From assembly GCA_017554365.1 (NCBI GenBank), contig JAFZIM010000052.1, forward strand, positions 1 to 41,526: a DNA stretch of 41,526 nucleotides, in the 5' to 3' direction. Shown here piece by piece: positions 7,856 to 41,399 of this stretch (positions are counted from its first letter, which is position 1; every line of letters begins with the position of its first letter). A model generated the notes under the pieces. That model had not been told where the DNA came from and did no database searches. It was given only the letters and a program-made list of their open reading frames with translations. The DNA comes from Alphaproteobacteria bacterium (GTDB lineage: Bacteria > Pseudomonadota > Alphaproteobacteria > Rs-D84). Both the position numbers and the translations under genes were made by a program.

Positions 7856-10780
7856 TTGAAAATCAAAAGTTTAGTTAGATTTTTGATGCTTGTTATTGCT
7901 TGCAATGTGTCAGTGCAAGCCGTTTTTGCTGATGATTTTGATGCTGAGGTTTTTTTAAATAGCTTAGAATTAAATCCACGACGTTGTTTTGGGGGTGGGC
8001 AGATATACGGCGAAGGTGGTGTTGGTTGTGCACAATGTCCAGGAGGCCAATCGGCTTCAAATGGTATCGATGAATGTTTTGCAAATTGTAAGAATGCGGA
8101 ATTTATTTCGCTTGGTGACGTATGTAGCGGGGATCCTAGTTGTGCTGCATCTATTACCGTTTTTATTATTTCTAAAAATTTATGTCAAAAATGTAAAGCG
8201 GGTGACAATAAATATTATTTAGAAAACAGATGTGTTTCAGCAACTGATTGTAATAATAATAACATGGTTGCTAATACGGTACTCGAAGACGATATTAATG
8301 TTGGTGTTTGTGAACCATGTGCCTCGGATCAATGTCGCAGTGGTAATGAATGTAAAGCCACCGATACAAATATACACAAACACAGTACTGATGGTATTTG
8401 TGTTGAATGTAGTGATAATCAATGTTTTAATGTCGATACTAATGTATGTATGGATTTGGACTCAACAGATATTATAAACAATAGAATGTATCGTGATACA
8501 AACGGAAATTGTGCTGCATGCGAAGGTTATACTGTTCCTCAAATTCCTAGACGTGCAAACGGTCCGGCATGTGTGACGCAGGAGCAGTGTAAAGACGGAT
8601 ATGGTATGCTTGAAGTTTCAGGTATAGACAACGCAAGATGTGGAAAATGTGAGAAACTTAGTGCAGTTCCTGAATTTCCTGATGTTGACCCTGGTGAATA
8701 TACATTAACAATTTATAAAAAAGAAACAGGAAGTGATAGGTATGTTTTTGCGAATCATCAATGTTGGGCTACAAATCCAAAAAAAGGAGGTTTCGCATAT
8801 AAGTATATGAAACCCGACGGACTTGGCAATTGGATTGCAGAGGATGATGTAAGCAAAATTGGTGAAACCAAAACAGGTTGTGTCGACCCGGAAAGACCTG
8901 TATGGGTGGTTGATGGATTATATTATGATATATATTATTGGCCAGAACATTTTGAATGTGGAACATGTGTAAATGGAATTTGGGAGGAGGATAGCGCACA
9001 TGCTGGTGGATGGAAATGCACATTATGTGAATCAGGTAAGATTCCTTTTGGTGCATGTAAAACATGTGCAGATTTAAATATGAATGCTGGTTGTAGTGTT
9101 GATTCTACCACAGGTCGATTAATAGGTGTACCACTTGGCGGATATTATTTTGAAAATGATGGAAGCAGGTCTTCCGCCCCATTATTTTGTGCGAAAACCG
9201 CTGGTGACGGTACGGACATGTGTTGGACGGGGGATAACAATAATAATACTTGTACCCCATGTGATTTAAATAATACAGTAGTAAGCCCAAGAACTGCAAC
9301 TGATGGTCGTCCGTATAATGAAAAGACAAATGCCACTTGTTCTGAAGGTTATTATATTAACAATGGTACATGTACTGTATGTCTTGGTGCAGGTAAGGGT
9401 TGGTATAAAAATGTAGATGGTAGTGGTGAACATCTGTTTTGTGATGATGCTTTTGAAAATGGTTTTTTAGCATATAAATGTGTTAATGATTTAATCAACA
9501 ACTATTATCGCGGTAATTGTGATAATGCCGGGGGAATTTCGTATAATAAATGGATAGCCCTGAATGAAGAAAACTTGAAACAAGTCATTAATGCGACAAA
9601 TGTGAATGTTAATAGTTTTATGCAGCAAGGAAAAGATCTTGGATATTTAGATGCAAATGATAAAACAATTAAAATGTGTACTTTACAAAATTTGGGGGTA
9701 GATAATAATGGCTTGGGTGCGGATGTGTGGGATGGTATAGGTATTGGATTACAAGAGATAGATGGAAATTCTGGGACCTTGCTTTATATAGATAGAGGGT
9801 GTTTCAAATGTAAGGAAGGATATGGATCTACAACTGACTCAGATTTACCAAATCTTTGTAAGAAATGTCCTAGCAATCAAGGCCCTATATTTATAGGAAA
9901 TGGGGATAATAAATACAAACGTCCAACAGCCGCCGAAGAAAATAAAGGATATTATGGTTGTAGTCCTTCATGTAAATTTGAAGGTTGGGGAAAATATAAT
10001 AATGAATGTGTATTGTGTTCAGATAAAGGAATGCAATCCATAGCAGGTTCAGAATATAATATTTGTCAAGCATGTCCAAAAGGAACAGGTTGGAATGAAG
10101 GATCTAAGACGTGTGGGGATTGTCCTAGTGATTCACCTTCGTATAATGGGAAATGTTTGGATTTTACAGGTTTGAAAAAAGAAATTTGTGATCCTAATGG
10201 TGCAAATTGTTCATCTAATAACCCTTTTTATATTGAAGCTGGTCAAATTAAATTTAGAAACGATTACCAAATAGATGAAAATGGTAATATTCAATATAAA
10301 GGTACGGGTAAAGATAACCCGCACAGATACGAAGCGGCTAAGAGTACAGACGGAAAGTATTATTGGGTGCCTTGTCGCGGGGGTAGTGATAATAATCTTA
10401 GTTATTCATGTTGTTATGAAGGTAAAAGAGTAAGACAAACAGATAATACGAGATTTGTATTACCTGGAATGGCATGTACAAAAGATAGTAGAAATAATAC
10501 TAAATCGACTTTACTTTGTGATGATGTTAACCCTGGTTTTGTGAGAGGCGAATCCGAATATCCAGATATTGATAGTTCATATAATATGGAAAATCTGACC
10601 AGTTTTATAGTAAATAGAGTTTGTAATAAACGTGTTGGTATTTCTAATTTATGCGATAATAATAATTGTATTGTTATACCAGAATGGTTGAAAGTGGAAA
10701 GTTTATCAACAAAATATTTGGATTATACCGGTAAAAGCGGTATGTCAAATTCTAGCCCTACTAGACCTGGAAAAACATAA
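7856..10780 (+). CDS. P0: secreted 974-aa cysteine-rich protein with 16 CxxC motifs (furin/ephrin-receptor-like/VSP-like repeats); function unknown
   Basis: Uninterrupted 2.9-kb ORF. TTG start is 5 nt after GGAAGGA. N-terminus MKIKSLVRFLMLVIACNVSVQA/VFA looks like a Sec signal peptide. I hand-counted about 69 Cys, including CAQCPGG, CQKCKAG, CEPC, CVEC, CAAC, CGKC, CGTC, CTLCESG, CKTC, CTPC, CTVC, CFKCKEGYG, CKKCPSNQG, CVLCSDKG, CQACPKGTGW and CGDCPSD. No C-terminal TM segment or beta-barrel is evident. Confidence 0.9.
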   Translation: MKIKSLVRFLMLVIACNVSVQAVFADDFDAEVFLNSLELNPRRCFGGGQIYGEGGVGCAQCPGGQSASNGIDECFANCKNAEFISLGDVCSGDPSCAASITVFIISKNLCQKCKAGDNKYYLENRCVSATDCNNNNMVANTVLEDDINVGVCEPCASDQCRSGNECKATDTNIHKHSTDGICVECSDNQCFNVDTNVCMDLDSTDIINNRMYRDTNGNCAACEGYTVPQIPRRANGPACVTQEQCKDGYGMLEVSGIDNARCGKCEKLSAVPEFPDVDPGEYTLTIYKKETGSDRYVFANHQCWATNPKKGGFAYKYMKPDGLGNWIAEDDVSKIGETKTGCVDPERPVWVVDGLYYDIYYWPEHFECGTCVNGIWEEDSAHAGGWKCTLCESGKIPFGACKTCADLNMNAGCSVDSTTGRLIGVPLGGYYFENDGSRSSAPLFCAKTAGDGTDMCWTGDNNNNTCTPCDLNNTVVSPRTATDGRPYNEKTNATCSEGYYINNGTCTVCLGAGKGWYKNVDGSGEHLFCDDAFENGFLAYKCVNDLINNYYRGNCDNAGGISYNKWIALNEENLKQVINATNVNVNSFMQQGKDLGYLDANDKTIKMCTLQNLGVDNNGLGADVWDGIGIGLQEIDGNSGTLLYIDRGCFKCKEGYGSTTDSDLPNLCKKCPSNQGPIFIGNGDNKYKRPTAAEENKGYYGCSPSCKFEGWGKYNNECVLCSDKGMQSIAGSEYNICQACPKGTGWNEGSKTCGDCPSDSPSYNGKCLDFTGLKKEICDPNGANCSSNNPFYIEAGQIKFRNDYQIDENGNIQYKGTGKDNPHRYEAAKSTDGKYYWVPCRGGSDNNLSYSCCYEGKRVRQTDNTRFVLPGMACTKDSRNNTKSTLLCDDVNPGFVRGESEYPDIDSSYNMENLTSFIVNRVCNKRVGISNLCDNNNCIVIPEWLKVESLSTKYLDYTGKSGMSNSSPTRPGKT

Positions 10781-13174: not shown

Positions 13175-13203
13175 TTGTCAAAAAATGTATGTTATGATAA
13201 AAT
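13175..13203 (+). promoter_or_regulatory. Promoter candidate with extended -10 for P1
   Basis: TTGTCA (13175-13180), 17-nt spacer, TAAAAT (13198-13203), with TG at 13195-13196 (the string TGATAAAAT). Confidence 0.45.
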
Positions 13204-13228: not shown

Positions 13229-16042
13229 ATGAAAAAATTGTTAATTTTACCTGTGTTAATCGCTATGTGTATGGCGGATTTCGGCGCTTTTGCTGCTGCA
13301 CCACGTGGTGGAAGAACTGGCGGAACACCTGCTGCATCAAATGCTGGTGGTAATGTCAAAGCTGCTCGTGCTGCTAAACAAAACACCCAGGTCAAACCAG
13401 GAACAGCATCTGGTAAAGCAACTAGTGGTACAACAGGCAACAAAACATCAGGTTCTAATACTGGTAGTCAAAAGAATAGTGCGCCTGCTGCATCAAATGC
13501 TGGTGGTAATGTCAAAGCTGCTCGTGCTGCTGCTACACAGAAAGTGTTGAATACTGGAACAAAAATTGCACAGAAAACAGAAAATACTGTGGTACCTAAA
13601 GAATGTCAGGACGCATATTATGGCTGTATGGATACATTCTGTATGTTGGATAATACATCAGGTGGTCGTTGCCAATGTAGTGACAGAAGTAAAGATTTAA
13701 ACCCATTATTGGACGAAATTACAAAAATCGACCAAATTGCTTATACAATGGCTACCGAAGGTGTAGAAAGATTGCAAATGGGTGAAAATGCAGAACAGGT
13801 TATTGCGATGGCAAAAGCAGCAGGTGCAAAGGTTTCATCTACAGATAACAGTTTGGGAATTCAAAGTGCAGACGATTATGCTGCTAATGCTGGTAAAAAC
13901 AAAAAATCAACAAGAAAAGAATTGGATTTAAATGCATTCAAAGTGGGTGTATTTGATGACGATGATGATGTTTTTGGTGAAGATGAAAAATCAGAAGCCG
14001 AAAAGAAAGCAGAAGTTTTGGAAGACAGCATGGCAAATAAACTTGGTGATGATTTACGTTCTGCTGCAAATAAACTTTGTGTTGAACAAATGCCAAAACA
14101 ATGTGTAGATTCAACATCTATGTTGCAATTGGCTTATACACAAAAAATTAAATCAGATTGTAATGCATACGAAAATTCTTTGAAACAACAAAAGATTGCA
14201 AGTAATCAAAAATTGGCTGCTGCTGAAAAAGCATTACGTGAAGCCGCTCTTGAATCTTTTGAAAAAGAAAATAAATATGAATTGGGACCATGTATAACTG
14301 AATTTACAAAATGTATCCAAAAAGATGCAGGTTGTGGTGAAGATTATACAGGTTGTACAACTTTGTCTGCAAAAGACAATGTAAGAAACAAAACAGGTCA
14401 ACAAACAGTTATTCCAGGAACAACTGTTAAAATATCTGTTTCTACATTGGAAGCAATCACAGCAAAGAAATCAATGTGTGAACACATTACAAAACAATGT
14501 GTAAAGGCAAACCAAAATGATGCAGTATGGACAGCGTTCTTGAAAAATGTTGCACCTGCATTGAAATCAGCTGAAGAACTTGCAGAAGAAAAGTTACGTT
14601 TAGAATGTATACCAAACATTTCTGAATGTTTCCAAAAAGCTTGTGCACAGAAATTTGATCCAAAAGCAAAAGAAGCAAACTATGATTCATGTTTGTCTGA
14701 TCCTTCTATCGTAAAAGATTTATGTAAGGTAAAATTGGAACCATGTTTGGAAGCAACTGGTGGTTCTTATGCAAATGCTGAATCTTCTTCTTTGTGGAAT
14801 GGTGTTTTAGCGGCTTTGGGTGCTATGCGTGTTGATGCATGTACAAGTGAAGTAAAAGCATGTTTGGAATCTGATGATGTTTGTGGTAAAGATTACGGTA
14901 GATGTGTCGGTTTGGATACAGAATCTATCGGTGAAATGTGCCCAACAGATAAGTTGACTGCTTGTATGGCAAAGAATGAGAATAATGAATCTACTGTACG
15001 TGCATATGTTGCAAGAGTTGCACAAGGTATCGCATTAGGTATTGATAGCAATATGCTTACCGTTTGTCAAAAAGCTGCTGATGATGCTATGACAAAGGTT
15101 TGTGGTGCAACTGATTCTTGTGAATCTTTGACATTTGATGGCAGAATATTTGCTGATAATTTAAATGTCCAAGTATGTAGAAAAGGTGCTGAGGGTGTGT
15201 ATGAATGTGCTAATACAGCTGATGGTTTCGATGCCAAATATGTTTTGAATGGTGAAGTAGTTCCAAATATTACAGGCATGTTTGATTTGGCAACTATAAC
15301 ATTCGATACAGAAAATGGTTTTGGTGTTGATACTGGATTGGCCTCTTATACAGAAAAGACCAGTAACGGACGTTATTATACAGGTGATAAATGGGCTGAC
15401 AGTGTTGCAAAACAATTAAACGCAGCAATAAATGCTAAATGGAATACAATTAAATCTGACCCAACAGTCACATATTGTATGGAAGGTCGTCAAGTCCAAG
15501 GTTTTGATAGCAAGAAATTTGGTAAAAAGAATGATAAAGAATCTATACGTTTTCCAAACTTGTTAGACAACAAGAGAGATGTTATGATTTATGCTTTATA
15601 TAAATCAATGTCTTCTGCATATTCTGATGCATTGGATGGATTACAAGAAAAACGTGAAGCTGCTCAAAAGACCATTGATGATCGTTTAGCAAGAATTGAT
15701 GGTGCTGGTGAATCAGCTCAGGATAGATTAAATGAAAGTGCATGTCAGAGTGGTTATGCTAGACCTGACCCTAACTGGAATGGTGATAGAAATAAGAGAC
15801 GTGCTAGAGCATATATAAGACAGCTTGTTGATGTTAATGCATCTTATAATGCGGACACAAATGTATGTACTGCTGAAACAATGCAATATACATGTACTAA
15901 ATATTTATCACCAAGTTGTAGAATCTTTGACAATGGAACAAAGACAAAGACAAAGACAATACAAATGCATAAATATAACAGAGAGGATGCATTGGGTAGT
16001 AATGGTTATACAGCGAAACCAAAAAATCCTGATGAATTCTAA
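13229..16042 (+). CDS. P1: secreted cysteine-rich protein, unrecognised paralogous family (937 aa)
   Basis: ATG at 13229 is 6 nt after AAGGAG. Signal peptide MKKLLILPVLIAMCMADFGAFA. Family signature CQDAYYGCMDTFCMLDNTSGGRCQC at 13604-13678. Long blocks are shared with P2, P3 and P6. Confidence 0.92.
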   Translation: MKKLLILPVLIAMCMADFGAFAAAPRGGRTGGTPAASNAGGNVKAARAAKQNTQVKPGTASGKATSGTTGNKTSGSNTGSQKNSAPAASNAGGNVKAARAAATQKVLNTGTKIAQKTENTVVPKECQDAYYGCMDTFCMLDNTSGGRCQCSDRSKDLNPLLDEITKIDQIAYTMATEGVERLQMGENAEQVIAMAKAAGAKVSSTDNSLGIQSADDYAANAGKNKKSTRKELDLNAFKVGVFDDDDDVFGEDEKSEAEKKAEVLEDSMANKLGDDLRSAANKLCVEQMPKQCVDSTSMLQLAYTQKIKSDCNAYENSLKQQKIASNQKLAAAEKALREAALESFEKENKYELGPCITEFTKCIQKDAGCGEDYTGCTTLSAKDNVRNKTGQQTVIPGTTVKISVSTLEAITAKKSMCEHITKQCVKANQNDAVWTAFLKNVAPALKSAEELAEEKLRLECIPNISECFQKACAQKFDPKAKEANYDSCLSDPSIVKDLCKVKLEPCLEATGGSYANAESSSLWNGVLAALGAMRVDACTSEVKACLESDDVCGKDYGRCVGLDTESIGEMCPTDKLTACMAKNENNESTVRAYVARVAQGIALGIDSNMLTVCQKAADDAMTKVCGATDSCESLTFDGRIFADNLNVQVCRKGAEGVYECANTADGFDAKYVLNGEVVPNITGMFDLATITFDTENGFGVDTGLASYTEKTSNGRYYTGDKWADSVAKQLNAAINAKWNTIKSDPTVTYCMEGRQVQGFDSKKFGKKNDKESIRFPNLLDNKRDVMIYALYKSMSSAYSDALDGLQEKREAAQKTIDDRLARIDGAGESAQDRLNESACQSGYARPDPNWNGDRNKRRARAYIRQLVDVNASYNADTNVCTAETMQYTCTKYLSPSCRIFDNGTKTKTKTIQMHKYNREDALGSNGYTAKPKNPDEF
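13328..13375 (+). repeat. Perfect 48-bp direct repeat, copy 1 (inside P1)
   Basis: cctgctgcatcaaatgctggtggtaatgtcaaagctgctcgtgctgct, encoding PAASNAGGNVKAARAA. Confidence 0.95.
13484..13531 (+). repeat. Perfect 48-bp direct repeat, copy 2 (inside P1)
   Basis: Identical 48-mer located 156 nt (52 codons, in frame) downstream of copy 1. Confidence 0.95.
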
Positions 16043-16231: not shown

Positions 16232-18817
16232 ATGCCAAAAATATTTTATGCTTTGTTAATGTTGGTGGTTGTTATGCCTGAAAATGTCAGTGCGGCTGTG
16301 AATCGTGCGCGTGCTGGGGCTTCACAAAAAGTTGTTAATGCTGGAACCAAGGTTGCTGCTGCAACTAAATCAAATTTATTAGACAAAGATTGCGAAGAAT
16401 CTTTCTTTGGTTGTTTAGATGCTTTCTGTGTTGTTGAAAATGTTTCTGGGGGGCGTTGTGTTTGCAGTAATAAACATGCAGATTTGTCAGCACAACTTGA
16501 TGAAATTTTAAAAATGGACGAAGATGCCTATGCTATATCTACATACGGCGTTGAACATATAAATTTAGGTAAAGCAGCGGATAGCGTTATATCTGCTTCT
16601 GAAAAGGCATTTGATAAAGCAAAAAAAGATGCAGAAGACGAAGATTTAACAGAAAAGAAATCTGCTGAACCAGTTAAGAAAAAAACTCTCAGTTTTGATG
16701 AATGGAATAAATCTTTTGGTGGTGATGATGACGATGAAGATGAAGAAGAAACTGCATCACTTGATGAAGATGATATTTCAAATAAAAAGGGCGATGAATT
16801 ATATATTGCCGCTGCAAAAATGTGTTGGACTCAGGTGCCAGATAAATGTAAACCAAAAGAAGAAATGGCAAAAATGCTTTATACACAAAAAATCAAATCT
16901 GATTGTGCTGCATTTGAAAATAGTGTAAAGCAGAAAAGAACAGAAAGCACAAATAAACTTGAAACTGCAAAGAAAAATGTTCGTGATGCTGCGTTTGAAA
17001 GTTTACAAGCGTCTAATAAATTTGATATGGGACAATGTGCGATTGAATATGTTTCTTGTTTGCGTAAAGATGATATTTGTGGCAAAGATTTAACAAAATG
17101 TGTGACGTTGGCTGCAAATGAAAATGTGACAAAAGGCGAATCGGAACAAGTCGAAATCAAAGGCGAATTTTCAAGTATTTCTATTGCTGCTTCTACGATG
17201 GATTCTTTGAATGCAAAACGTGCAATGTGTGCCAGTGTGACAGACCAATGTTCTTCGGTTGATAAAGATGAATTGTGGACTTTGGTTTTGAAAAATATCG
17301 CACCTGAATTAAAGAATGCAGAATTAATTGCTGAATCTGATTTACGTGGTAATTGTTTAACAAATATTTCTGAATGTTATTTGAAAGCATGTAAAGATAA
17401 TATGGACCCAAAAGATCCTGATGGTTCATACGATATGTGTTTGGCAAGACCAGACAATTATAAATCTTTCTGTAAAGTTCAATTAGAACCATGTTTGGCT
17501 GCAACAGGTGGTTCGTATGATGATCCTGATTCATCAACTTTGTGGCGTGGGGTTTTAGCAAAATTAGCTGCAATGCGTGTTGATGCATGTACTGATGAAT
17601 TTAAATCTTGTTTACAAAGTGAAGACAGATGTGGCGAAGATTATTCACAATGTATTGGTCTTGACAATGATGATGTTGCGAAATTATGTCCAGAAGATAA
17701 ATTGCCTGCATGTTATAAAGAATACAATGGGAAAGTTGAAAGTGTTAATGAAACACTTGAAAGAATTGCCCAAGGTGTCATGTTAAATGTTGATAATGGT
17801 TTGTTGGCTGCATGTGAAAATGCTATCAATGAAGCAATGGTCAAGGTTTGTGGTGATGCTGAAAATTGTAATAAATTGGCAGTTGATAGTGGTATTGGTT
17901 CAAGAACTTTGAAATTAGAATATTGTGAAACAACTGACGAAGGTTATGTAAATTGTAAACAAGATGTTGGTTTAATTACAGATATTGAATTGGGTAAAAC
18001 AACACGTGATTCTAATTTAAAAACTACCAAGCATGATATTCATTTCTTTTCAGGTGTATATCGTGGTGTGATAGATTGGAGTGCTATATCAGTCAATGAT
18101 GATGTTAGTGGTATTACAGATTATGATGAATATGCTGAAAAAGCGGCTGATAGTTTAAAGAATATGAATGAAGATGAAAAAACAAGAATTAAATCTGAAA
18201 TTGGTTCATTAGCCAGTGCTATTAAGAATGCAATATCTGCTGTAGAATCTGATCCAAAAATTCAATTCTGCACCACAGGTCGTCAGGTTGAAGGTTTGGC
18301 GAATGATGAAGGATTTACACAAAAAATAGGCAAGGGTAATAATCCTTCTTTCCCAAATATTACACAAACTATGCGTAATATGATTGTGAATTCTGCATTA
18401 CAGCAAGCACGTGAAAATTACAATAAAAAATTGTCTGAATTGGAAAAGCAGGAAGCCGAAGAATCACAAGGTTTGGCAAGCCGTATTGCACAAATCAGTG
18501 GTGAAAATGAAAAAGTTGTGAAGCAAGATATGGCAAGAAAAGCATGTATTGCTTTGGCTGAAAAAGATAAACTTGGTGAATCTGTTGGTAGTTCCGTGAA
18601 GAAAGCGATTGAACGTGTTTCTGGTAGCGATGGTAAATTAACAGGACATAGTGCTGAATCTTCTTATAATTACAAAAGAAGTATTACTACTACATTTAAT
18701 TTGGAAGATATGATTTGTCATAAATGTATCAGAACACAACATTGTGAAAAGACAAAAACAAGTTATTGTAAACAATGGGGTGAAGAAGTAGAAACCTGTG
18801 AAGACATACATTATTAA
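16232..18817 (+). CDS. P2: secreted cysteine-rich protein, same paralogous family (861 aa)
   Basis: Signal peptide MPKIFYALLMLVVVMPENVSA. Signature CEESFFGCLDAFCVVENVSGGRCVC at 16391-16465. 38 Cys by hand count. C-terminal tail CHKCIRTQHCEKTKTSYCKQWGEEVETCEDIHY. Confidence 0.92.
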   Translation: MPKIFYALLMLVVVMPENVSAAVNRARAGASQKVVNAGTKVAAATKSNLLDKDCEESFFGCLDAFCVVENVSGGRCVCSNKHADLSAQLDEILKMDEDAYAISTYGVEHINLGKAADSVISASEKAFDKAKKDAEDEDLTEKKSAEPVKKKTLSFDEWNKSFGGDDDDEDEEETASLDEDDISNKKGDELYIAAAKMCWTQVPDKCKPKEEMAKMLYTQKIKSDCAAFENSVKQKRTESTNKLETAKKNVRDAAFESLQASNKFDMGQCAIEYVSCLRKDDICGKDLTKCVTLAANENVTKGESEQVEIKGEFSSISIAASTMDSLNAKRAMCASVTDQCSSVDKDELWTLVLKNIAPELKNAELIAESDLRGNCLTNISECYLKACKDNMDPKDPDGSYDMCLARPDNYKSFCKVQLEPCLAATGGSYDDPDSSTLWRGVLAKLAAMRVDACTDEFKSCLQSEDRCGEDYSQCIGLDNDDVAKLCPEDKLPACYKEYNGKVESVNETLERIAQGVMLNVDNGLLAACENAINEAMVKVCGDAENCNKLAVDSGIGSRTLKLEYCETTDEGYVNCKQDVGLITDIELGKTTRDSNLKTTKHDIHFFSGVYRGVIDWSAISVNDDVSGITDYDEYAEKAADSLKNMNEDEKTRIKSEIGSLASAIKNAISAVESDPKIQFCTTGRQVEGLANDEGFTQKIGKGNNPSFPNITQTMRNMIVNSALQQARENYNKKLSELEKQEAEESQGLASRIAQISGENEKVVKQDMARKACIALAEKDKLGESVGSSVKKAIERVSGSDGKLTGHSAESSYNYKRSITTTFNLEDMICHKCIRTQHCEKTKTSYCKQWGEEVETCEDIHY

Positions 18818-18819
18818 AG

Positions 18820-21552
18820 ATGAAAAATATTTTGAAATTCTTATTGTTAGCAATTGTATGTTGCATGTTTAATGCAGATGGTTTCGCTGCACGTGCACCT
18901 GTGAAATCAAGCAATCAAAATAAACCTGTACAAAAAGCACGTGCTGCTTCGGGTCAAAAGGCAATAAATTTAGGAACAAAAATTCAGGTTGCAACAACCA
19001 CATCTTCGCCATGTCAGGAAAAATACGATGCGTGTATGGATACTGGGTGTGTGATGGATAATGATTCCGGTGGTCGTTGTTTGTGTTCTGATCAATACAA
19101 AGATTTAAGTGATAAATTAGAAGAATTAAAAAAGAAAGATGCTGATACTTACAAAATCGCAAATATTGCCAAAGCAAGCATAGAAGATGGCGAAGATGTT
19201 GATGAAGCCATGGATTCCATCTTTGGTGATGAAGAAAGTGATTTCGATGTTAGCCCGGCTTCATCAGGTGCAACTGGGGATAAATTGCGTGCAGAAATGC
19301 ATAATATTTGTATTGAAAAAATACCTGAATGTAAATTGCAATTTGTTTTGGTTAAAAATATGTATATTCAGAAAATCAAATCAGATTGTGCCGCTTTTGA
19401 TAATGCTTTGCGGGAACAAAGTATCGCAAGCAAAGAAAAAAGGGCAGAAGCAAAAAAAATGGTGCGTGAAGCAGCCCTTGAAAAATATGAAGAAAATAAC
19501 AAATATGATTTGGGTCAATGTACAATTGAATTCACAAAATGTATAAAAACAACTGCTGAATGTGGCAATGATTTTACTGGCTGTGTTGATAGTGTTGGTA
19601 AAGATAAAATTTATGGCAAAGACATAGATGTATTTACTATCAAAGGTGAAAATTCTTCTGTGGTAATTGCTAAATCAACATACGAAATGTTGGAAAGTAA
19701 AAAATTAATTTGCGAAAGTGTTTTGAAAAATTGTGTTGATGTCAAAGACGAAGTTTGGAACGCGTTTTTGGCAAATTCTGCACCTGAAATAAAATTGGCA
19801 GAAAATAAATCAGAATCAAATATTCGTTCGTCTTGTTTGGAAAATATTTCAAATTGTTTTATTAATGCGTGCAAAGATAGTATCGAAGGTGATGACAAAG
19901 AATCTTATGATATGTGTTTGACACGTCCTGAAACGATGAAATCTTTGTGTCGTGTTCAAATGGAACCATGTTTGGCTGCAACTGGTGGTTCGTATGATGA
20001 ACCTGAAAAATCAACTTTATGGCCAAGCGTTTTAGCAAAATTATCTGCTATGCGTGCTGATTCTTGCACTGAAGAAATGAAAGAATGTATGCAAAGTGAA
20101 GACAGATGTGGCCCAGATTATGCAAATTGTATTGGGTTGGATACAAATATAATTATGCGTATGTGCCCGTATGATAAATTGCCTGGCTGTCAAAAAGTTT
20201 ATGGTGAAGATAAAATCCAAGGCGATGAAATTTATGACGAAGTTGCCAGAATTATCGAAGGCGTAATATTAAATATTGATAATGATTTATTAAAGGTTTG
20301 TGAAAATGCTGCTGAAACAGCAATGACAAAAGTTTGTGGTTCTGCTGAAAGTTGTGAGGTTTATGCAGCAGGTGGAAAAATTGGCGCACAATCTTTGAAA
20401 TATCAGGTTTGCCAATATTCAACAGATTCCCCAGATTCAACCGAAGGTTTCAAATGGTTCGATTGTCGCGAAAGTTTAGATCAAATATCTGATGCTGAAT
20501 TGGGACGTGTACAAGACGCCAAAAATGAAGAATTGGGTAATGTAAAACCATTTGCTGGTGTTATATCTGGTGTTATTAAATGGGAATCAGTAGAAATAAC
20601 AGACGATGGTTTAATTGATATAGATAAATATATGGAAGCATTAGAAAAAGAAAAAATCACAGAAGAAGAACGTGTTCGTGTCAAAGCAGAAATAGAGCAG
20701 GTGCAATCAGATATTAATCGTGTTATTTCATCTGTGGAACAAGACCAATGGTTGCAATTTTGTATTTCGGGTCGTCATATAACGGGCGTGACGGACAGAT
20801 TTGCGGATAATAAAGTACGTTTTCCAAAATTGGCAAATAATGTCCGTAAACAAATTGCTACCGCTGCATTACATCAGGCAAAAGAAAATTATTATGCCGA
20901 ATATGATAAATTATCCGCACAAATGCAACAAGATTTGGTGACAATAAGCGAAAGATTGGCAAATAACTTAAAAGAAAATGGCAAAGATGCTAAAAAAGCA
21001 GCGGCACGTGAGGCATGTGTTAATTTAGCTGCTGTGTCAGCATTTGCCAAAGCACCAGTCGGTCAATCTTTGTGGGCAAAGATTATTGTTGGTATAATTG
21101 TTGTTGCTGCGATTATTGTTGCAACAGTGTTTACATGTGGTGTTGCTGGTGGTGCTTCACTTGGATTTTTAGCAGGTGTTGCTACTGGTTCAATGATAAC
21201 TTCGGTGGTAGGGACTATTTCGGCAACGGGGGCTTTGATTGCGGCGTCAACTGCGACTGCCGTTGCTGGTGCCGCGGGAATTTCAGCAGCAGTTGATGCT
21301 GGTATAAATGCAACAACTGATAATAGTAAAATAGCAGCAGGAGAACAAACACAAAATCATGGTGAATATGCGGCGAATGAATGGAATTATCAAGAAAAAA
21401 TAACAACAGATTTTGATAATGATACAATGATTTGTAAGAAATGTGTTGTGAATCGTAAGTGTCGTTCTACAAAATGGTCTATATTCCGTGATAGATATTG
21501 TTCTAGTTGGGATCCTTATAGTGAACCAAGATGTACTGAAATTCAATTCTAA
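18820..21552 (+). CDS. P3: cysteine-rich protein of the same family with a C-proximal Gly/Ala-rich hydrophobic (glycine-zipper-like) region (910 aa)
   Basis: ATG lies 2 nt after the P2 stop, which suggests translational coupling. Signal peptide MKNILKFLLLAIVCCMFNADGFA. Signature CQEKYDACMDTGCVMDNDSGGRCLC at 19012-19086. Hydrophobic region at about 21073-21300. Tail CKKCVVNRKC…CSSWDPYSEPRCTEIQF. Confidence 0.92.
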   Translation: MKNILKFLLLAIVCCMFNADGFAARAPVKSSNQNKPVQKARAASGQKAINLGTKIQVATTTSSPCQEKYDACMDTGCVMDNDSGGRCLCSDQYKDLSDKLEELKKKDADTYKIANIAKASIEDGEDVDEAMDSIFGDEESDFDVSPASSGATGDKLRAEMHNICIEKIPECKLQFVLVKNMYIQKIKSDCAAFDNALREQSIASKEKRAEAKKMVREAALEKYEENNKYDLGQCTIEFTKCIKTTAECGNDFTGCVDSVGKDKIYGKDIDVFTIKGENSSVVIAKSTYEMLESKKLICESVLKNCVDVKDEVWNAFLANSAPEIKLAENKSESNIRSSCLENISNCFINACKDSIEGDDKESYDMCLTRPETMKSLCRVQMEPCLAATGGSYDEPEKSTLWPSVLAKLSAMRADSCTEEMKECMQSEDRCGPDYANCIGLDTNIIMRMCPYDKLPGCQKVYGEDKIQGDEIYDEVARIIEGVILNIDNDLLKVCENAAETAMTKVCGSAESCEVYAAGGKIGAQSLKYQVCQYSTDSPDSTEGFKWFDCRESLDQISDAELGRVQDAKNEELGNVKPFAGVISGVIKWESVEITDDGLIDIDKYMEALEKEKITEEERVRVKAEIEQVQSDINRVISSVEQDQWLQFCISGRHITGVTDRFADNKVRFPKLANNVRKQIATAALHQAKENYYAEYDKLSAQMQQDLVTISERLANNLKENGKDAKKAAAREACVNLAAVSAFAKAPVGQSLWAKIIVGIIVVAAIIVATVFTCGVAGGASLGFLAGVATGSMITSVVGTISATGALIAASTATAVAGAAGISAAVDAGINATTDNSKIAAGEQTQNHGEYAANEWNYQEKITTDFDNDTMICKKCVVNRKCRSTKWSIFRDRYCSSWDPYSEPRCTEIQF

Positions 21553-21579: not shown

Positions 21580-22572
21580 TTATTCTAATTCTTCCAAATT
21601 CTTTACAACACGTATTCCCATTGATTCAAATTTTTTTATTGTTTCGTCTATGTCCATTATATTTTGTGAACGTAAATATATTGTTGGAATAAATGGCGTG
21701 TCTTTTGATAATGTTAATAATTTTTGTATTGGTGATTCTTTCTGTTTGCCTGCTGCAAACCATGTGTCATCGTCCATTATCCAAAAATCTTCATCACTAT
21801 GTTCGTAAATTAAATTTTTATCAGAGCAAACAAATTCATCAATGATTTCATAATTGATATGTTTTGCATCAAAATATTTTGTTGTGAAATTTTCTAATTT
21901 GTTTTCTTCTTTGGATGTTAATTCGTCATCAAAATTTATATCTTTGAATTGTGGAATTGATAAATCTTCATTCATATTTAATGAAAAATCATTTGCTGAA
22001 TTTTGGTCGTCATTATCAAAAGGTAAATCAAAATCAGTTGGTATTGGGAAATCTTCCGGTGTTGGTTCGTTATTTGTTGGTTTTGGTTTTGTGTCGTTGT
22101 CTGTTTTGTTATATACAGATACGGCCCCCATCAAAGATTGATGATGTTTTGCACGCATATATGGAACTTTTAATTCAGGTGGCATATCAGATGGAAATAT
22201 ATTTTCTTCCGATTCGGTTTCTTCTGTTTCTTTCTTTTCTTCTTCATCAGCCACCGGGGCAGGTTTAGAAAATTTTGTTTTTATAAATTCAAATATTTTA
22301 TCTATAAATGGAATTTTTATTAATGATGCTTTATTTTTATATACGTTTATTGATGTTGCAATATAAATTGGAATTGCTGTGTACATCAATGTCGCAAATA
22401 CAAAACCTGCAAAACCATGAAAAGATGCGTGAAAAAATTTCCACCAATGATTTGCTGAAAAAGCATCAAAATTGAATATATATTGCAAAATCAACCAAAG
22501 AATAAAAAAGTATTCTATGGTCCATTTTACCAATTCAATATTTGTTTTAAAAAATTCTTTTATCTTTTGCAT
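21580..22572 (-). CDS. Hypothetical membrane protein (330 aa): N-terminal TM helices, acidic disordered linker, C-terminal globular domain
   Basis: Hydrophobic stretches WTIEYFFILWLILQYIF and FAGFVFATLMYTAIPIYIATSI. These are followed by a D/E/P/T-rich stretch, then an ordered C-terminal domain of about 100 aa. No family recognised. Confidence 0.7.
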   Translation of the reverse strand: MQKIKEFFKTNIELVKWTIEYFFILWLILQYIFNFDAFSANHWWKFFHASFHGFAGFVFATLMYTAIPIYIATSINVYKNKASLIKIPFIDKIFEFIKTKFSKPAPVADEEEKKETEETESEENIFPSDMPPELKVPYMRAKHHQSLMGAVSVYNKTDNDTKPKPTNNEPTPEDFPIPTDFDLPFDNDDQNSANDFSLNMNEDLSIPQFKDINFDDELTSKEENKLENFTTKYFDAKHINYEIIDEFVCSDKNLIYEHSDEDFWIMDDDTWFAAGKQKESPIQKLLTLSKDTPFIPTIYLRSQNIMDIDETIKKFESMGIRVVKNLEELE

Positions 22573-22681: not shown

Positions 22682-22710
22682 AATTTCATAAGAATTTGGG
22701 GGAAAGTAGT

Positions 22711-24885
22711 ATGAAAATATCAAATACATTTGGTTTTATGATGACGAGTTTGGCTGTCATGGCGACTTGTAGCGGTTTTGCTGCAAATAATGGACGCAGT
22801 ATGATGCAACAGGCAACTAATGTTGCTCGTATGCCGACAATGCCTGTCGTATCAATAAATTCTGTGGGAAATCCTGCTGTGCAAAATATAAATTTGCCTG
22901 TCAATAACAATACAGGTAGTATTATTCCTACACCTGTACCAAATCCAGATACCCCAACTCCAAATCCTTCTAAGTGCGAAGATGGTGGTGTAGAAAATTC
23001 TACTTATACTGCATCTATGTGTATGAATGATATTTTACAATGTATCAATACAGGCGCTTTGCAGGGCGGTTTGAATGATATGTTTAACGAAGATGTCCGT
23101 AATGCTATTATGGGCGGAATGCGTATCTGTCAAATGCATGTTGATAAATGTATTACCGAAGTTCGTGTAAATTGTAAAAATGTTTATCATGAAGCAACTG
23201 ATGTATGGCTTGATTTCAATTCAAGAATTGTTCAACCAGAATATTATAATTTCGTATTGCGTAAAACTGGGTTGACACCACATCAGGCAGAAAATACATG
23301 TTTGTTGTTGGATAGAAATGCTTATGGTTCTTCTTTCGCAGCGGTTTCTGATACAAATGTTGTAAATACAGAATACAATAATTTGGTCGGTGCATATAAT
23401 TCTGCAAATGGTGGAACTTTGTCCAAAGATAATCCACAAGGTGTTGCAGTAAATACCGTTGGTTATGATGGAAACCGCGGTCATTATGCACGTTGGGACG
23501 CATCTAATGCTGAATGTTTAATCCGTGTTGGTGCTTATAACAAAGATAAATCTATTACAAACAGCTGGTTGTTTGGTGCTGTGGGTAATGATAATGTTGC
23601 AGAAGTTTGGCAGAAAGCCGGTTCTACATTTACTTGCAACAAAGATTTGTTCGGATTTTCTTTGATGAATGATACAAAGACAGCCGCAGTTATCGGTGTT
23701 GGTGGTGGTACTTTGGTTGGTGCTGCTATCGGTGCTGGTGCAGGTGCTGCTGTGTATAACAAGAAAGCCAAAGAAGCCCAAGCAGAAAGCGATAGATTAG
23801 CAGAACAGGGTGCTAACCCATGTAATGACGAAGAATATCGTAAAAAATTGTCTGCAAAAATTATGCAAACACCTGATCGTAAAGATGAAGTGTTGAAAAC
23901 TTATTTGTATGAATCTGTTAACTTAAAGACAGATAATCAGGGTAAAAAGCAAGCTGAAATTGATACTGCTTCTTCAAACAAATTGTTTGGCCCAGATACA
24001 GATTGGTACAATTTAAACAAAGAACAATGCGATGCAATTTTGGGATTGTATTCAAAAGCTGCTGTGTATAAAGACGCTATTGAAAAATGTAGAAATGTCG
24101 ATACTAACAGGGTTATTTTGAATCAAATGCCATCAAATCAAACTGCATTTGAAAAATTGGAAATTGTTGATGCTTATGGCAATAAATTGTTGATGTCTGG
24201 TTCTGTTCAATGTGGTATGGCAAACAATATCACAGATAATCAGGTCAGAACATTTAATGAAACTTGCTTGTTCGTTCCATTACAGGTCGGTTTCGCAGTA
24301 GAACATAATGATTCACCTTTCTGTAATCACAATGGTAAATGCTTAACAGTTAACCAAATTGAAAACGAATTAAGCAGAATGAAATCATTGTTGACAAAGA
24401 TTGAACCTGTTGTTCCTGCTGGTATTGCAAGTGGTGAAACAAAATTAAGCAAGGGCAAAGAAATCGGTAAAGGTCTTGCTATCGGTGCTGTCACAGGTGC
24501 TGCTGCTGGTGGTTTAGCAACTGCAATTACAGCATTCGTAGAACGTAGCAACATTACATGTAAAGTCGGTGATGGTTTGAATTCTGTTGCATTGGGTAAA
24601 TCTCATACCATAGATTCTTTGAAAGATTTCTATGTAAAATGGAATTTACATTTACCTGATACAGTATCCCCAACATCTGCTGTTGTTGACAGAACATCTT
24701 GGGATGCTGCATGTGCACAATTCAATGGCAAATTACATGATTGTCCACGTGTTCAAATCAATTTGAAAAATGCACATGGTAAATATACTTTGGTTCAAGG
24801 CGCATGTGTTGTTTCAGGTTCAATTTGTATAACAAATGATTCTGTTGCAGCATCACATGGTGCAGCATCACATGATGCAGAATAA
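22711..24885 (+). CDS. P7: cysteine-rich envelope protein with two glycine-zipper-like hydrophobic segments (724 aa); unknown function
   Basis: ATG at 22711 follows GGGGGAAAG. Signal peptide MKISNTFGFMMTSLAVMATCSGFA. A Pro-rich linker (PTPVPNPDTPTPNPS) follows. Cys occur throughout. Gly/Ala segments are TAAVIGVGGGTLVGAAIGAGAGAAVY (23680-23757) and GLAIGAVTGAAAGGLATAITAFV (24472-24540). Confidence 0.88.
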   Translation: MKISNTFGFMMTSLAVMATCSGFAANNGRSMMQQATNVARMPTMPVVSINSVGNPAVQNINLPVNNNTGSIIPTPVPNPDTPTPNPSKCEDGGVENSTYTASMCMNDILQCINTGALQGGLNDMFNEDVRNAIMGGMRICQMHVDKCITEVRVNCKNVYHEATDVWLDFNSRIVQPEYYNFVLRKTGLTPHQAENTCLLLDRNAYGSSFAAVSDTNVVNTEYNNLVGAYNSANGGTLSKDNPQGVAVNTVGYDGNRGHYARWDASNAECLIRVGAYNKDKSITNSWLFGAVGNDNVAEVWQKAGSTFTCNKDLFGFSLMNDTKTAAVIGVGGGTLVGAAIGAGAGAAVYNKKAKEAQAESDRLAEQGANPCNDEEYRKKLSAKIMQTPDRKDEVLKTYLYESVNLKTDNQGKKQAEIDTASSNKLFGPDTDWYNLNKEQCDAILGLYSKAAVYKDAIEKCRNVDTNRVILNQMPSNQTAFEKLEIVDAYGNKLLMSGSVQCGMANNITDNQVRTFNETCLFVPLQVGFAVEHNDSPFCNHNGKCLTVNQIENELSRMKSLLTKIEPVVPAGIASGETKLSKGKEIGKGLAIGAVTGAAAGGLATAITAFVERSNITCKVGDGLNSVALGKSHTIDSLKDFYVKWNLHLPDTVSPTSAVVDRTSWDAACAQFNGKLHDCPRVQINLKNAHGKYTLVQGACVVSGSICITNDSVAASHGAASHDAE

Positions 24886-35170: not shown

Positions 35171-37372
35171 ATGAAAAAAATGAAATTTTTGTTGGTTTTA
35201 TTGATGTTTCCGGCTGTTGCGTTTGCTGCGGGTCGTGGTGATGGTGCTGCTCGTGTTGGAATGAGTAGTAGGGGTTCACAGGCAGGGGCAAGAATGTCTA
35301 TCACATCTTTAGATGTTAAAGAAGCCGCATCAAAAGCTCCAATTTCTACAAAAGTTGAAGAACCAGAAGAAGTCGAAGAAATCGTCGAAGTCGTTGAAAA
35401 ACCGGCAAAAAAGACGACTAAGGTTGTTGTAAAAGAAGTTGAAGAATCAGAAGAAATAGAAGAAACAAAATCTTCTAAGGGTTCAGATGATTGTCGTGAA
35501 TCATATCGTGATTGTATGGATCAATTCTGTTTATTAGACGAAAGTCAGGGTGAACGTTGTGCTTGTTCTGATAATATAGAATTAGCAAAAAGTAAAATTA
35601 AGGCCGTTTTAGATATTCAAGCAGAAGCAGATAAATTGTTTACAGAAGGTGTGGAACGTGAACAATTAGGTGCTAAGGCAAGATTGGTATTCACAGAAAA
35701 TTCCGGAAACAAAGGCGTTTCAGGAACTAATTTCTTGGCGTGGCTTGGTGGTGAAAGCGACGACGAAGATGATGATGTTGGTGAAGATGTCACAATGGGT
35801 GATGATTTATACCAAATGGCTGTGAAATATTGTTCTGCTGAATTAGAATCTTGTGGTTCAAAGGGCGAAATGGAAGCGATGTTATATACTCGTATGATTA
35901 CCCAAGATTGTAAAAATTATGATGCTTATTTAAAAGATCAAAAAGCAAATGCAGAATCTAATAAACGTATTGCAGAATCTGCTGTGCGTAAGGCACGTCT
36001 TGAAATGCTTGATACAACCAATAAATACAATCGTGGTGAATGTTTGTTGGCTTATCGTGCATGTATAGCAGATAAGGGTGGTTGTGGAACTAATTTTGAA
36101 AACTGCCTTGATAAAAAATTATTAGAACGTCGTTCAAATGCTTGTGAAAACATATTGGATCAATGTATGGCTGTTCGTGATTATGTTAAACAAGATTGGG
36201 CCCAAGAATCAAAAAGTGTTTTGGAAGAAGCAGCAAAATATGCTGATAAAAATAGACGTGGAACATGTTTGGCTCAGGCACAATTCTGTTTGGAAGAAAG
36301 TTGTTCTACATCAACAAATGCAGAATGTTTAACAAATGTAAATGTTGCTGCTGGAATTTGTCCTATTATTACAGAATGTGAAGAAATTATCCCAGGATTC
36401 CAAGGTGTTATAAATGATAAATTGGGATTTTTGAGAACAAAATTCTGTGAAAATGATATTGATAAATGTTTGCGTGATAAATGTGGTCAAGATTTCACAA
36501 AGCCAGAATGTGTTGGTAAAAAACCTTATGAAATCGCTGCTTTGTGTCCACAAGATATGTTCCCATCATGTAATGGTGCTGCACAATATGACATAATCGT
36601 TCAATCTGCGATTTTACAGATGGATTATCAGATGTTGCAGGGCTGTGTGAATTATTTCGGTGAACAATTATCAAAAGTTTGTGGAACAGATATGGCTTGC
36701 TTGCCAATTGACGCAACAATTGAAGCATTGACAGATTTACCAGACACCGAAGAAGGTTTGGCAAAATTACGTAAACAGGTTGTTGCAAATTCTGATGCCG
36801 CAGTTGAAGAATTCTTTGCACAATTTGAACGTGATAAAACCGTTTCTGCTTGTGCTGACTCTCAATCTGTTGAAACCAAGAAAGTCAAAGGTAAAAATTC
36901 TTTGGGTGTAAGCGTATTTAATTCTGCTAAATTATTGGCAAAAATGTCTGCTGAAAATCGTAATATACGTGAATTAGATTCCAAGATTGCTGAATTGGCA
37001 CGTAAAAAAGATTTGGCAGAAGCAAAAGAAATTTGCTTGAAGACATATAAACCTGAAAAACCAGATAATTCAAAGTCAAATTATAGTTATATACACACAG
37101 TATCATTTGAACCTAATTTACGTAATTGTCACGTATGTCGTATGCAACAAGTATGTGAAGAAGGTGGCGAATCCAAGGCAACATCTGCGTTGAAAGCGGC
37201 GGCTGGTGGTTTGTCTGCTGGTGCATCTGCTGGAACAATGATAAGTGCTGGTTGGGGAACTGCTATCGGTGGTGTCGTCGGTGCTGTTGGTGCCGGTGTA
37301 ATGGGTGCTATGTCCGGTGGTAAAAAAGAATTCTGTCAGGAAATTGAATCCTGCGAAGATATTAATATGTAG
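35171..37372 (+). CDS. P5: cysteine-rich protein of the same family with a glycine-zipper-like segment inserted in the C-terminal Cys tail (733 aa)
   Basis: ATG at 35171 is 8 nt after AGGAA. Signal peptide MKKMKFLLVLLMFPAVAFA. Signature CRESYRDCMDQFCLLDESQGERCAC at 35492-35566. Gly/Ala segment AAAGGLSAGASAGTMISAGWGTAIGGVVGAVGAGVMGAMSGG at about 37187-37320. Ends CQEIESCEDINM. Confidence 0.9.
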   Translation: MKKMKFLLVLLMFPAVAFAAGRGDGAARVGMSSRGSQAGARMSITSLDVKEAASKAPISTKVEEPEEVEEIVEVVEKPAKKTTKVVVKEVEESEEIEETKSSKGSDDCRESYRDCMDQFCLLDESQGERCACSDNIELAKSKIKAVLDIQAEADKLFTEGVEREQLGAKARLVFTENSGNKGVSGTNFLAWLGGESDDEDDDVGEDVTMGDDLYQMAVKYCSAELESCGSKGEMEAMLYTRMITQDCKNYDAYLKDQKANAESNKRIAESAVRKARLEMLDTTNKYNRGECLLAYRACIADKGGCGTNFENCLDKKLLERRSNACENILDQCMAVRDYVKQDWAQESKSVLEEAAKYADKNRRGTCLAQAQFCLEESCSTSTNAECLTNVNVAAGICPIITECEEIIPGFQGVINDKLGFLRTKFCENDIDKCLRDKCGQDFTKPECVGKKPYEIAALCPQDMFPSCNGAAQYDIIVQSAILQMDYQMLQGCVNYFGEQLSKVCGTDMACLPIDATIEALTDLPDTEEGLAKLRKQVVANSDAAVEEFFAQFERDKTVSACADSQSVETKKVKGKNSLGVSVFNSAKLLAKMSAENRNIRELDSKIAELARKKDLAEAKEICLKTYKPEKPDNSKSNYSYIHTVSFEPNLRNCHVCRMQQVCEEGGESKATSALKAAAGGLSAGASAGTMISAGWGTAIGGVVGAVGAGVMGAMSGGKKEFCQEIESCEDINM

Positions 37373-40358: not shown

Positions 40359-40381
40359 ATGCCCGCAAGGGCATTTTTTTA
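40359..40381 (+). terminator. Rho-independent terminator after the ygiW-like gene
   Basis: ATGCCC (40359-40364) / GGGCAT (40369-40374), loop GCAA, T-run at 40375-40381. Confidence 0.75.
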
Positions 40382-40427
40382 TTTGTTCTTTTTTTATGTT
40401 GTTTTTTGTGATATAATTATATTTGAT

Positions 40428-41399
40428 ATGAGAATCTTGAAATATATACCTTTTATGATTATGTGTATGTTTGCAAATACTGCTATGGCGGGTTGGCAAT
40501 ATAATGGTTATTACATAAAAGATGGTTATTATTCTGATGATGGTTCAAGATTTATAATTGGTTTTAATGGCGGGCTGTCTTGGGGTAATGCATCTATTAC
40601 AAATGAAGTTGGCAGTTTACAGGCATCGTATTATATGAATTCTACTACTGGTGTTGTTATATCTGGTACAGCGTATGCTTTGCTTGATTCAACACAACAG
40701 GCAGAATATGTTGATATTGGTATTGGTGATGTATCTGAATTAAAAGCAAAAAAAGATTTTTCTAAAACTGCTTTTGCTGCGGGTGCTTATATTGGATTTA
40801 CAATACCTAATCATCCACAATGGCGTTTACAGGCGGGATATGACCATATTGCAGAAACTGATTATGACAGAATACCTTTGTTCGAAGGTGATATATCTTT
40901 GACAAGTGGATATAGCGCACATGTGTATAGCAGTGGTGTTAAATCTACGATTACGACAGACATTATATCAATAATGGCGGTATATGATTTCTTTGAAGGA
41001 AATACAAAACCTATGAATACTATAATCCCTTATGTTGGCATAGGGGCAGGATATTCAATGTCAAAAACAACATTAAAATTAACAGATATATTTGGTGATT
41101 TATCTCAAGATGCAGATTTAATAAATTATGGAACTTTGGAAAATGGTATTTTGGTTTTTGATAATCCAAATGGTTCTGATAAATATCCAACATCTAATAA
41201 TATTGCGTTGTTGGGGACACTTGGTATTTCTTATGGGATAAATGAATATACATATCTTGATTTAAATGCGCGTGTAATGTATGTTCCAAAAATCAGTTGG
41301 CAGATAGCCAATTCAGATGGAACACAACATCGTGATTGGTTCGGTGCTGAAAATATGATATACAGCAACGTTATGTTGGGTTTAAGATTTGAATTTTAA
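40428..41399 (+). CDS. Outer-membrane beta-barrel protein (porin/OMP_b-brl-like), 323 aa
   Basis: Signal peptide MRILKYIPFMIMCMFANTAMA. Alternating hydrophobic pattern rich in Gly, Tyr, Ser and Thr. C-terminal beta-signal …NVMLGLRFEF ends in Phe. Start trimmed from 40359, which lies inside the terminator hairpin. Confidence 0.65.
   Translation: MRILKYIPFMIMCMFANTAMAGWQYNGYYIKDGYYSDDGSRFIIGFNGGLSWGNASITNEVGSLQASYYMNSTTGVVISGTAYALLDSTQQAEYVDIGIGDVSELKAKKDFSKTAFAAGAYIGFTIPNHPQWRLQAGYDHIAETDYDRIPLFEGDISLTSGYSAHVYSSGVKSTITTDIISIMAVYDFFEGNTKPMNTIIPYVGIGAGYSMSKTTLKLTDIFGDLSQDADLINYGTLENGILVFDNPNGSDKYPTSNNIALLGTLGISYGINEYTYLDLNARVMYVPKISWQIANSDGTQHRDWFGAENMIYSNVMLGLRFEF

Follow-up and report, generated by a model that had tools for sequence, protein, structure and literature searches.

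EGF-like domains contain six cysteines, the fifth of which pairs with the sixth ~8-12 residues after the C-x-C (PROSITE EGF_1/EGF_2), and the first five cysteines of EGF and calcium-binding EGF (cbEGF) domains are spaced C-x7-C-x4-5-C-x10-13-C-x-C. CHCH proteins (twin Cx9C, PF06747) of the mitochondrial intermembrane space consist of two antiparallel helices joined by two disulfides. The Hcp proteins of Helicobacter (Sel1-like, PF08238) are secreted alpha-helical repeat proteins in which pairs of cysteines bridge helices, and they form paralogous families in host-associated bacteria with small genomes, while chlamydial OmcB and OmcA (PF03504) are cysteine-rich exported proteins of a partner-dependent bacterium with a reduced genome. 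Here we describe a 25-residue motif with five cysteines, C-x6-C-[ML]-D-x-[FG]-C-x9-C-x-C-S, carried by six proteins (P1 to P6) that are encoded on a 41,526-nucleotide stretch of DNA, referred to below as the window, from an alphaproteobacterium of the order Rs-D84 (GenBank assembly GCA_017554365.1, contig JAFZIM010000052.1, positions 1 to 41,526). Rs-D84 organisms are strict anaerobes without respiratory chains; their genomes are smaller than 1 Mb, respiration and most biosynthesis are missing, and they are presumed to live as obligate symbionts or parasites (PMC12306168).

A preliminary description of this DNA held that the motif occurs once in each of the six proteins, always over 75 nt, that its spacing is constant even in the most divergent member, and that it defines a family. 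On translation, the six peptides matched that description letter for letter at the positions and on the strands given below. A six-frame scan of the whole window yielded six matches only, one per open reading frame (ORF), with either the strict pattern or the bare framework C-x6-C-x4-C-x9-C-x-C. The sites are listed here together with the conserved stretch that precedes the motif in P1.

13604..13678, plus strand: five-Cys motif of P1, CQDAYYGCMDTFCMLDNTSGGRCQC, residues 126-150 when numbering begins with the ATG at 13229
16391..16465, plus strand: five-Cys motif of P2
19012..19086, plus strand: five-Cys motif of P3
34239..34313, minus strand: five-Cys motif of P4, the paralogue that diverges most
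35492..35566, plus strand: five-Cys motif of P5
37562..37636, plus strand: five-Cys motif of P6
13520..13564, plus strand: conserved pre-motif stretch of P1, ARAAATQKVLNTGTK, family consensus RAAxxQKVxNxGTKV

Assuming ordinary amino-acid frequencies, a match to the strict pattern arises by chance with a probability of ~1e-14 per position, and ~0.003 chance matches would be expected in a library of 2.4e11 residues. Pairwise DNA identity among the six 75-nt segments is 53-72%, with 2-7 synonymous differences per pair at codons for conserved residues. These values indicate that the segments are old paralogues under purifying selection rather than recent copies. The similarity extends well beyond the motif, as the six ORFs align along their whole length, with 21-36% identity to P1 and ~24 invariant cysteines. 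The region ahead of the motif had been described as variable, which holds for the low-complexity spacer of ~30-105 residues between the signal peptide and the motif but not for the stretch directly N-terminal to the motif, where RAAxxQKVxNxGTKV is found in P1, P2, P3, P6 and almost all orthologues.

In our view, large, Sec-exported, mostly helical proteins with ~38 conserved cysteines make up a family specific to one lineage, and the motif is probably their N-terminal disulfide block, which does not vary. Family members have a length of ~750-1,000 residues, and the family is confined, as far as has been seen, to the reduced-genome Rs-D84 bacteria (Candidatus Enterousia) of gut and rumen. All six window proteins share the signal peptide, the N-terminal block, the ~38 conserved Cys columns and the helical character. 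A profile built from the N-terminal module (85 residues) was searched against a set of 1.84 billion representative proteins and returned 634 clusters at E<=1e-3; among the 150 listed, every one has the Cys spacing, with the module always within the first ~245 residues, and all 94 listed clusters of at least 600 residues also match the profile of the remaining protein. The framework C-x6-C-x4-C-x9-C-x-C is kept in 269 of the 269 motif-bearing database homologues examined, and C-x6-C-x-D-x2-C-x9-C-x-C in 119 of the 120 homologues listed, the sole exception being P1 of the window itself, for which the gene call starts at an internal Met. The motif is thus indeed diagnostic of the family, as the preliminary description had proposed.

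The strict pattern itself proved specific and at the same time too narrow. Frequent matches to unrelated proteins would have deprived it of discriminating power; in 1.5 Mb of related loci it occurs in 117 of 138 family ORFs and in none of 9,422 other ORF stretches. It misses 36 of the 150 listed representatives, in which the final S is replaced by N or D, or [FG] by L, M or V, and a broader signature may be written as C-x3-[YF]-x2-C-[MLV]-[DN]-x2-C-x(3)-[NS]-x2-G-G-R-C-x-C. A scan of genome contigs with a broadened alignment found 502 relatives; the record titles listed name metagenome-assembled genomes of gut and rumen Alphaproteobacteria and Candidatus Enterousia, and the named database homologues are all annotated as 'hypothetical protein'. 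Two family-bearing loci stem from bins that carry the labels Bacteroides fragilis and Muribaculaceae; these loci are probably mis-binned or mislabelled Rs-D84 contigs rather than a true occurrence outside the lineage. In the literature on Enterousia, on Rs-D84 and on proteins rich in cysteine, no description of the five-Cys family was found. Family and signature alike are undescribed; the stapling of helical hairpins in exported proteins by disulfides is already known as a principle from CHCH proteins and Helicobacter Hcp.

Five is an odd number, and for the fifth cysteine three options had been put forward: a distant partner in the same chain, an intermolecular disulfide, or a metal. The motif is not an autonomous five-Cys domain; it forms the first block of ~38 conserved Cys columns, and C-x6-C units recur along the protein, as x6-x6-x6 twice and as x6-x4 twice. 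In all six paralogues, 74-133 residues separate the motif from the next cysteine, and the residues that follow the C-x-C (consensus SDRNAELD...) are free of cysteine. The five motif cysteines, together with C284, C292 and C311 of P1, are never substituted in 332 full-length sequences. Elsewhere in the protein, cysteines are lost in pairs: in raw counts, C472 and C488 are lost together in 19 of 19 cases, C362 and C417 in 7 of 7, C460 and C506 in 5 of 5 (in five divergent lineages and with differing replacement residues), and C545 and C571 in 9 of 11. Paired positions add up to constant sums (362+417 = 355+424; 460+506 = 467+499), which fits antiparallel helices stapled by two disulfides, and AlphaFold 2 (AF2) places these cysteines on helices. 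From the motif to the C-terminus, the number of cysteines is even in 197 of 209 full-length members (94%), with a mode of 38 and other counts mostly of 34, 36, 40 and 44; for P1 to P6 the counts are 36, 38, 39, 31, 36 and 36, respectively.

The region that bears the three additional invariant cysteines is also the one to which the motif is coupled. Covariation was calculated as simple mutual information with average product correction (effective number of sequences, 219). Residues 120-190, comprising the module and the following helix, couple to residues 250-350 in 20 of the top 30 long-range pairs, and reciprocally residues 280-345 couple to 100-200 in 24 of 30; further coupling joins 350-430 with 450-550 and 600-665 with 750-850. 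Region 280-345 is a helical hairpin that holds C284, C292 and C311:

14078..14161, plus strand: C284, C292 and C311 of P1 on the next helical hairpin, never substituted; proposed cis partners of the motif cysteines

When P1 residues 110-955 were modelled with AF2 (mean predicted local distance difference test score, pLDDT, 72; predicted template modelling score, pTM, 0.44), the model consisted mostly of long helices with a small C-terminal beta domain. The model shows a helix over the first three motif cysteines and a loop followed by a helix at the fourth and fifth, both in context and when the module is modelled alone. The motif region has a pLDDT of 85-89 in the full-length construct and ~52-59 as an isolated module, a drop consistent with a module whose folding requires the remainder of the domain.

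Even parity, paired loss of cysteines and covariation with the hairpin that bears three invariant cysteines lead us to favour pairing in cis: most likely, the motif and the other cysteines form intrachain disulfides, and the fifth cysteine is balanced elsewhere in the chain. We propose a model whereby, after export, the first three cysteines would lie on a short helix, with C-x6-C occupying positions i and i+7 on one face and the third cysteine at the helix end, and the C-x-C pair would stand where the next long helix begins. The five motif cysteines and C284, C292 and C311, ~135-160 residues downstream, would then form four intramolecular disulfides, which would hold the N-terminal helix-loop-helix against the first long hairpin, with a disordered acidic linker bridged in between. 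Along the protein, paired C-x6-C motifs would repeatedly staple antiparallel helices in like manner. With the C538/C545-C571/C579 and C460/C467/C472-C488 blocks as a guide, the putative pairs are C126-C292, C133-C284 and C138-C148 or C138-C150, with the remaining cysteine joined to C311.

A number of points weigh against this model. The count of P4 is odd (31), as is that of P3 (39) unless a cysteine inside a predicted membrane helix is discounted. The co-loss and covariation counts carry no correction for phylogeny, and the AF2 confidence is moderate only, the values given above having been obtained with an alignment of 46 sequences. The exact pairings are inferred, as is the role of the proteins. 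Finally, oxidising machinery of the Dsb type may be absent (no search for it was made) from these organisms, which are strict anaerobes lacking respiratory chains.

Odd Cys totals are what one would look to if the fifth cysteine were instead unpaired in its chain and formed intermolecular disulfides, so that the paralogues would be cross-linked in a proteinaceous envelope or surface lattice that would function as the chlamydial cysteine-rich outer-membrane complex does. Such totals are seen in 12 of 209 members (6%) and in P4, and the five cysteines of the block, the presence of several paralogues side by side in a genome of less than 1 Mb, the position of the core copy next to a highly expressed operon, and the dependence of these reduced-genome organisms on a host or partner all accord with this alternative. 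We nevertheless find it unlikely, given that parity is even in 94% of full-length members, that Cys numbers change by twos, and that the module has three more invariant cysteines within reach in cis, in the region with which it covaries. Chlamydial OmcB and OmcA provide a candidate functional analogy, as cysteine-rich, exported proteins of a partner-dependent organism with a reduced genome; they differ in that the cysteines of the present family appear to be paired within the chain and in that the window encodes an SLT peptidoglycan-remodelling enzyme. Membership in the OmcB-type family was rejected, as there is no PF03504 match and no similarity by sequence or hidden Markov model (HMM).

Binding of Zn or an Fe-S cluster by the five cysteines would suit a permanently anoxic, reducing habitat. 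The organisms live in the anaerobic gut and lack a respiratory chain, the cysteines are invariant and closely spaced, and metal binding is reported for cysteine-rich proteins on the surface of anaerobic gut protists. The signal peptides are of the Sec type and contain no twin-arginine motif, which precludes the export of a cofactor assembled beforehand. In addition, no conserved His or extra Asp ligand pattern accompanies the single invariant Asp, the strictly pairwise loss of other cysteines of these proteins speaks for disulfides, and no metal-binding family was matched in Pfam and NCBIfam scans. We therefore give a metal site very little probability. As to the three options for the fifth cysteine, a distant cysteine of the same chain is favoured by the parity in 197 of 209 members, the paired loss and the covariation, and the intermolecular and metal options are disfavoured.

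The resemblance of the block to EGF-like and cbEGF domains (Pfam clan EGF, including PF00008, PF07645, PF25016 and PF14670) deserves separate consideration, as the spacing of the first five cysteines is nearly equal, a N-x-x-G-[GS]-x-C-x-C segment is shared, and both are extracytoplasmic. The block might be a degenerate EGF-like module with five cysteines, a small binding domain rich in beta structure and knotted by disulfides that might contact the host or partner. Its spacing and N-x-x-G-G-x-C-x-C segment recall EGF and cbEGF, and EGF-like families are the only Pfam matches of the isolated module. None of these matches reaches its threshold: 8 of 15 members match EGF_Pikachurin (best E 0.06; 10.6 bits, far short of the gathering threshold of 27), and one matches FXa_inhibition (E 0.0035). 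The block lacks a sixth cysteine, the next one being 74-133 residues away, and AF2 predicts helix rather than beta structure over the first three cysteines. Moreover, the block forms part of a large helical protein from a bacterial host, and neither the PDB-sequence profile search nor Foldseek gave an EGF match. Membership in the EGF-like domain families fails on the missing sixth cysteine near the C-x-C, the sub-threshold scores and the helical prediction, and a degenerate EGF-like origin of the block appears highly improbable to us.

The preliminary description's claim of novelty would have fallen had the pattern turned out to be a known domain signature; no curated family or solved structure was matched. 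Pfam and NCBIfam scans of the six full-length proteins gave nothing significant, and PDB-sequence profile searches with the full-length profile and with the module gave no significant match, none of the hits being EGF-like. Foldseek comparison of the AF2 model of P1 residues 110-955 with the PDB returned no match below E=1 (best E 1.3), and with the AF2 model of the isolated module (pLDDT 58) it found nothing. The alpha-pore-forming toxins of the ClyA/MakA/SmhB type, which have an elongated helical bundle with a beta-tongue head, appeared in the Foldseek output (MakA, VCA0883 and SmhB, E 1.8-3.6, TM <=0.15) and were rejected as noise. The N-terminal block and the later C-x6-C blocks look alike locally (C-x6-C-[GM]-x-D-[FY]); the idea that the former is an internal repeat of the latter was dropped, the hhalign E-value of about 0.4-0.5 not being significant.

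Among helical proteins, CHCH domains offer the likeness of two antiparallel helices and two disulfides, an arrangement to which paired loss and the constant i+j sums point in the present family. They differ in spacing, which here is x6 (or x6 with x7) and not x9, and in that many such units occur in one exported bacterial protein of 800-1,000 residues; membership was set aside on the motif spacings of 6/4/9/1, the x6 units elsewhere, the lack of a Pfam match and the absence of similarity by sequence or HMM. Helicobacter Hcp proteins are likewise secreted and helical, with regularly spaced Cys pairs and paralogous families, and are unlike the five-Cys proteins in Cys pattern, size and architecture. 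Sel1-like/Hcp membership was rejected, as none of the six proteins has a PF08238 match at E<=1 (the repeats being ~36 residues long).

The six genes encode proteins of 733-937 residues from their likely ATG starts, and a classical Sec signal peptide ending in AxA is predicted in all of them:

13229..16042, plus strand: P1 gene, 937 residues if translated from the ATG at 13229, a gene of that length being called also on a near-identical public contig
13229-13294, plus strand: Sec signal peptide of P1
16232..18817, plus strand: P2 gene, 861 residues; the public gene call begins 14 codons later
18820..21552, plus strand: P3 gene, 910 residues
32361..34691, minus strand: P4 gene, 776 residues from the ATG at 34691
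35171..37372, plus strand: P5 gene, 733 residues from the ATG at 35171, with a glycine-zipper-like C-terminal segment
37394..39871, plus strand: P6 gene, 825 residues from the ATG at 37394

The P1 ORF opens at a TTG at 13175. Within its low-complexity N-terminal spacer lies a perfect 48-bp direct repeat (13328-13375 and 13484-13531, plus strand) that doubles the peptide PAASNAGGNVKAARAA, which suggests that the variable spacer of P1 was shaped by slippage or duplication. The public contig scaffold_1907 (ENA ERZ28653989) was compared with the window over ~35 kb and, apart from a run of N, departs from it at only two bases, 11273 and 13672. The latter difference places TGA instead of TGC at 13670-13672, the fourth Cys codon of the P1 motif, and P1 is called on that contig as two genes of 133 and 764 residues. 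A second near-identical contig, ERZ28019272 k141_661909, has TGC at this codon and an intact P1 of 937 residues. The TGA is likely an assembly error or a strain-level nonsense allele; selenocysteine at the fourth Cys position was set aside as unlikely, since both the window and the second public contig have TGC.

Two of the paralogues differ from the rest ahead of the C-terminal Cys domain. P3 has a strong hydrophobic helix at approximately residues 752-772 and a Gly/Ala-rich stretch, and the hydrophobic or glycine-zipper stretches lie at window positions 21070-21300 in P3 (approximately residues 750-825) and 37240-37330 in P5 (approximately residues 690-720). P1, P2, P4 and P6 have no such segment before this domain. 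Because only P3 and P5 carry it, the family may comprise both membrane-anchored and soluble forms. A comparable segment is present in many orthologues, ahead of the small conserved C-terminal Cys domain, which usually ends in F, Y or M.

The window is a segment of bacterial chromosome with ~35% G+C, and the six family genes fill ~15 kb of its 41.5 kb. It begins with a ribosomal protein operon (secY, rpsM, rpsK), rpoA and rplQ, followed by P1, P2, P3 and two conserved uncharacterised genes. A DNA methylase gene, nrdR, an SLT transglycosylase gene, rnhB, pgk, clpP and clpX occupy the middle, and the end holds P4 on the minus strand, infA, P5, P6, a BOF protein gene and the gene of a probable outer-membrane barrel ending in F. 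P1, directly downstream of rpoA-rplQ, is the syntenic 'core' copy. The order rpoA-rplQ (L17)-[one to several family genes]-X330-X729 is kept in ~61 of 79 related loci, so that one family copy is a core gene whose site is fixed, directly behind a highly expressed operon. The number of family genes per locus ranges from 1 to 6 by tandem expansion.

From the conserved core copy directly after rpoA-rplQ and the tandem expansion of paralogues we infer that the family provides a major, disulfide-stabilised structural protein of the envelope or cell surface of a partner-dependent bacterium. Rs-D84 bacteria (Candidatus Enterousia) are widespread in the guts of humans, livestock and rodents and are thought to depend on a partner organism. 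With ~15 kb of the window, a syntenic core copy, tandem expansion and no match to a known fold or family, these proteins are an obvious candidate for their major envelope or interaction protein. More speculatively, and with considerable doubt on our part, the family might supply the building blocks of a novel disulfide-stabilised coat or attachment apparatus, with a new fold of serial 'twin C-x6-C' hairpins and the five-Cys block as a cross-linking or docking handle; if so, it would be central to how uncultured gut Alphaproteobacteria attach to and live off a partner cell. The motif provides a clean, highly specific marker for these proteins, and hence for the organisms, in metagenomes, while the paired-loss analysis yields a concrete, testable disulfide map. 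It also raises the question of how ~19 disulfides per molecule would be oxidised in a strict anaerobe without quinone-linked respiration.

Between rpsK (S11) and rpoA, a gene at 7856-10780 (plus strand) encodes a secreted protein of 974 residues with 69 cysteines (7.1%) and many C-x2-C pairs. It has no counterpart by tblastn in the 79 related loci and no Pfam or NCBIfam match, and it looks like a strain-specific insertion into the ribosomal/RNA polymerase operon. Downstream of P3, a gene at 21580-22572 (minus strand), found in 61 of 79 loci, encodes a likely membrane-spanning protein of 330 residues with hydrophobic N-terminal segments, and one at 22696-24885 (plus strand), found in 38 of 79 loci, a Cys-containing protein of 729 residues with glycine-zipper segments. 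These two conserved syntenic neighbours have no significant Pfam match and by HMM are unrelated to the five-Cys family. The Cys-rich proteins encoded at 7856-10780 and 22696-24885 were tested for membership in the family and do not belong to it. At the end of the window, an ORF of 346 residues (40359-41399, plus strand), for which neither a Pfam match nor a homologue in the related loci fetched was found, closes with ...RFEF and alternates in the manner of an outer-membrane beta-barrel, a resemblance that suggests that the organism is diderm.

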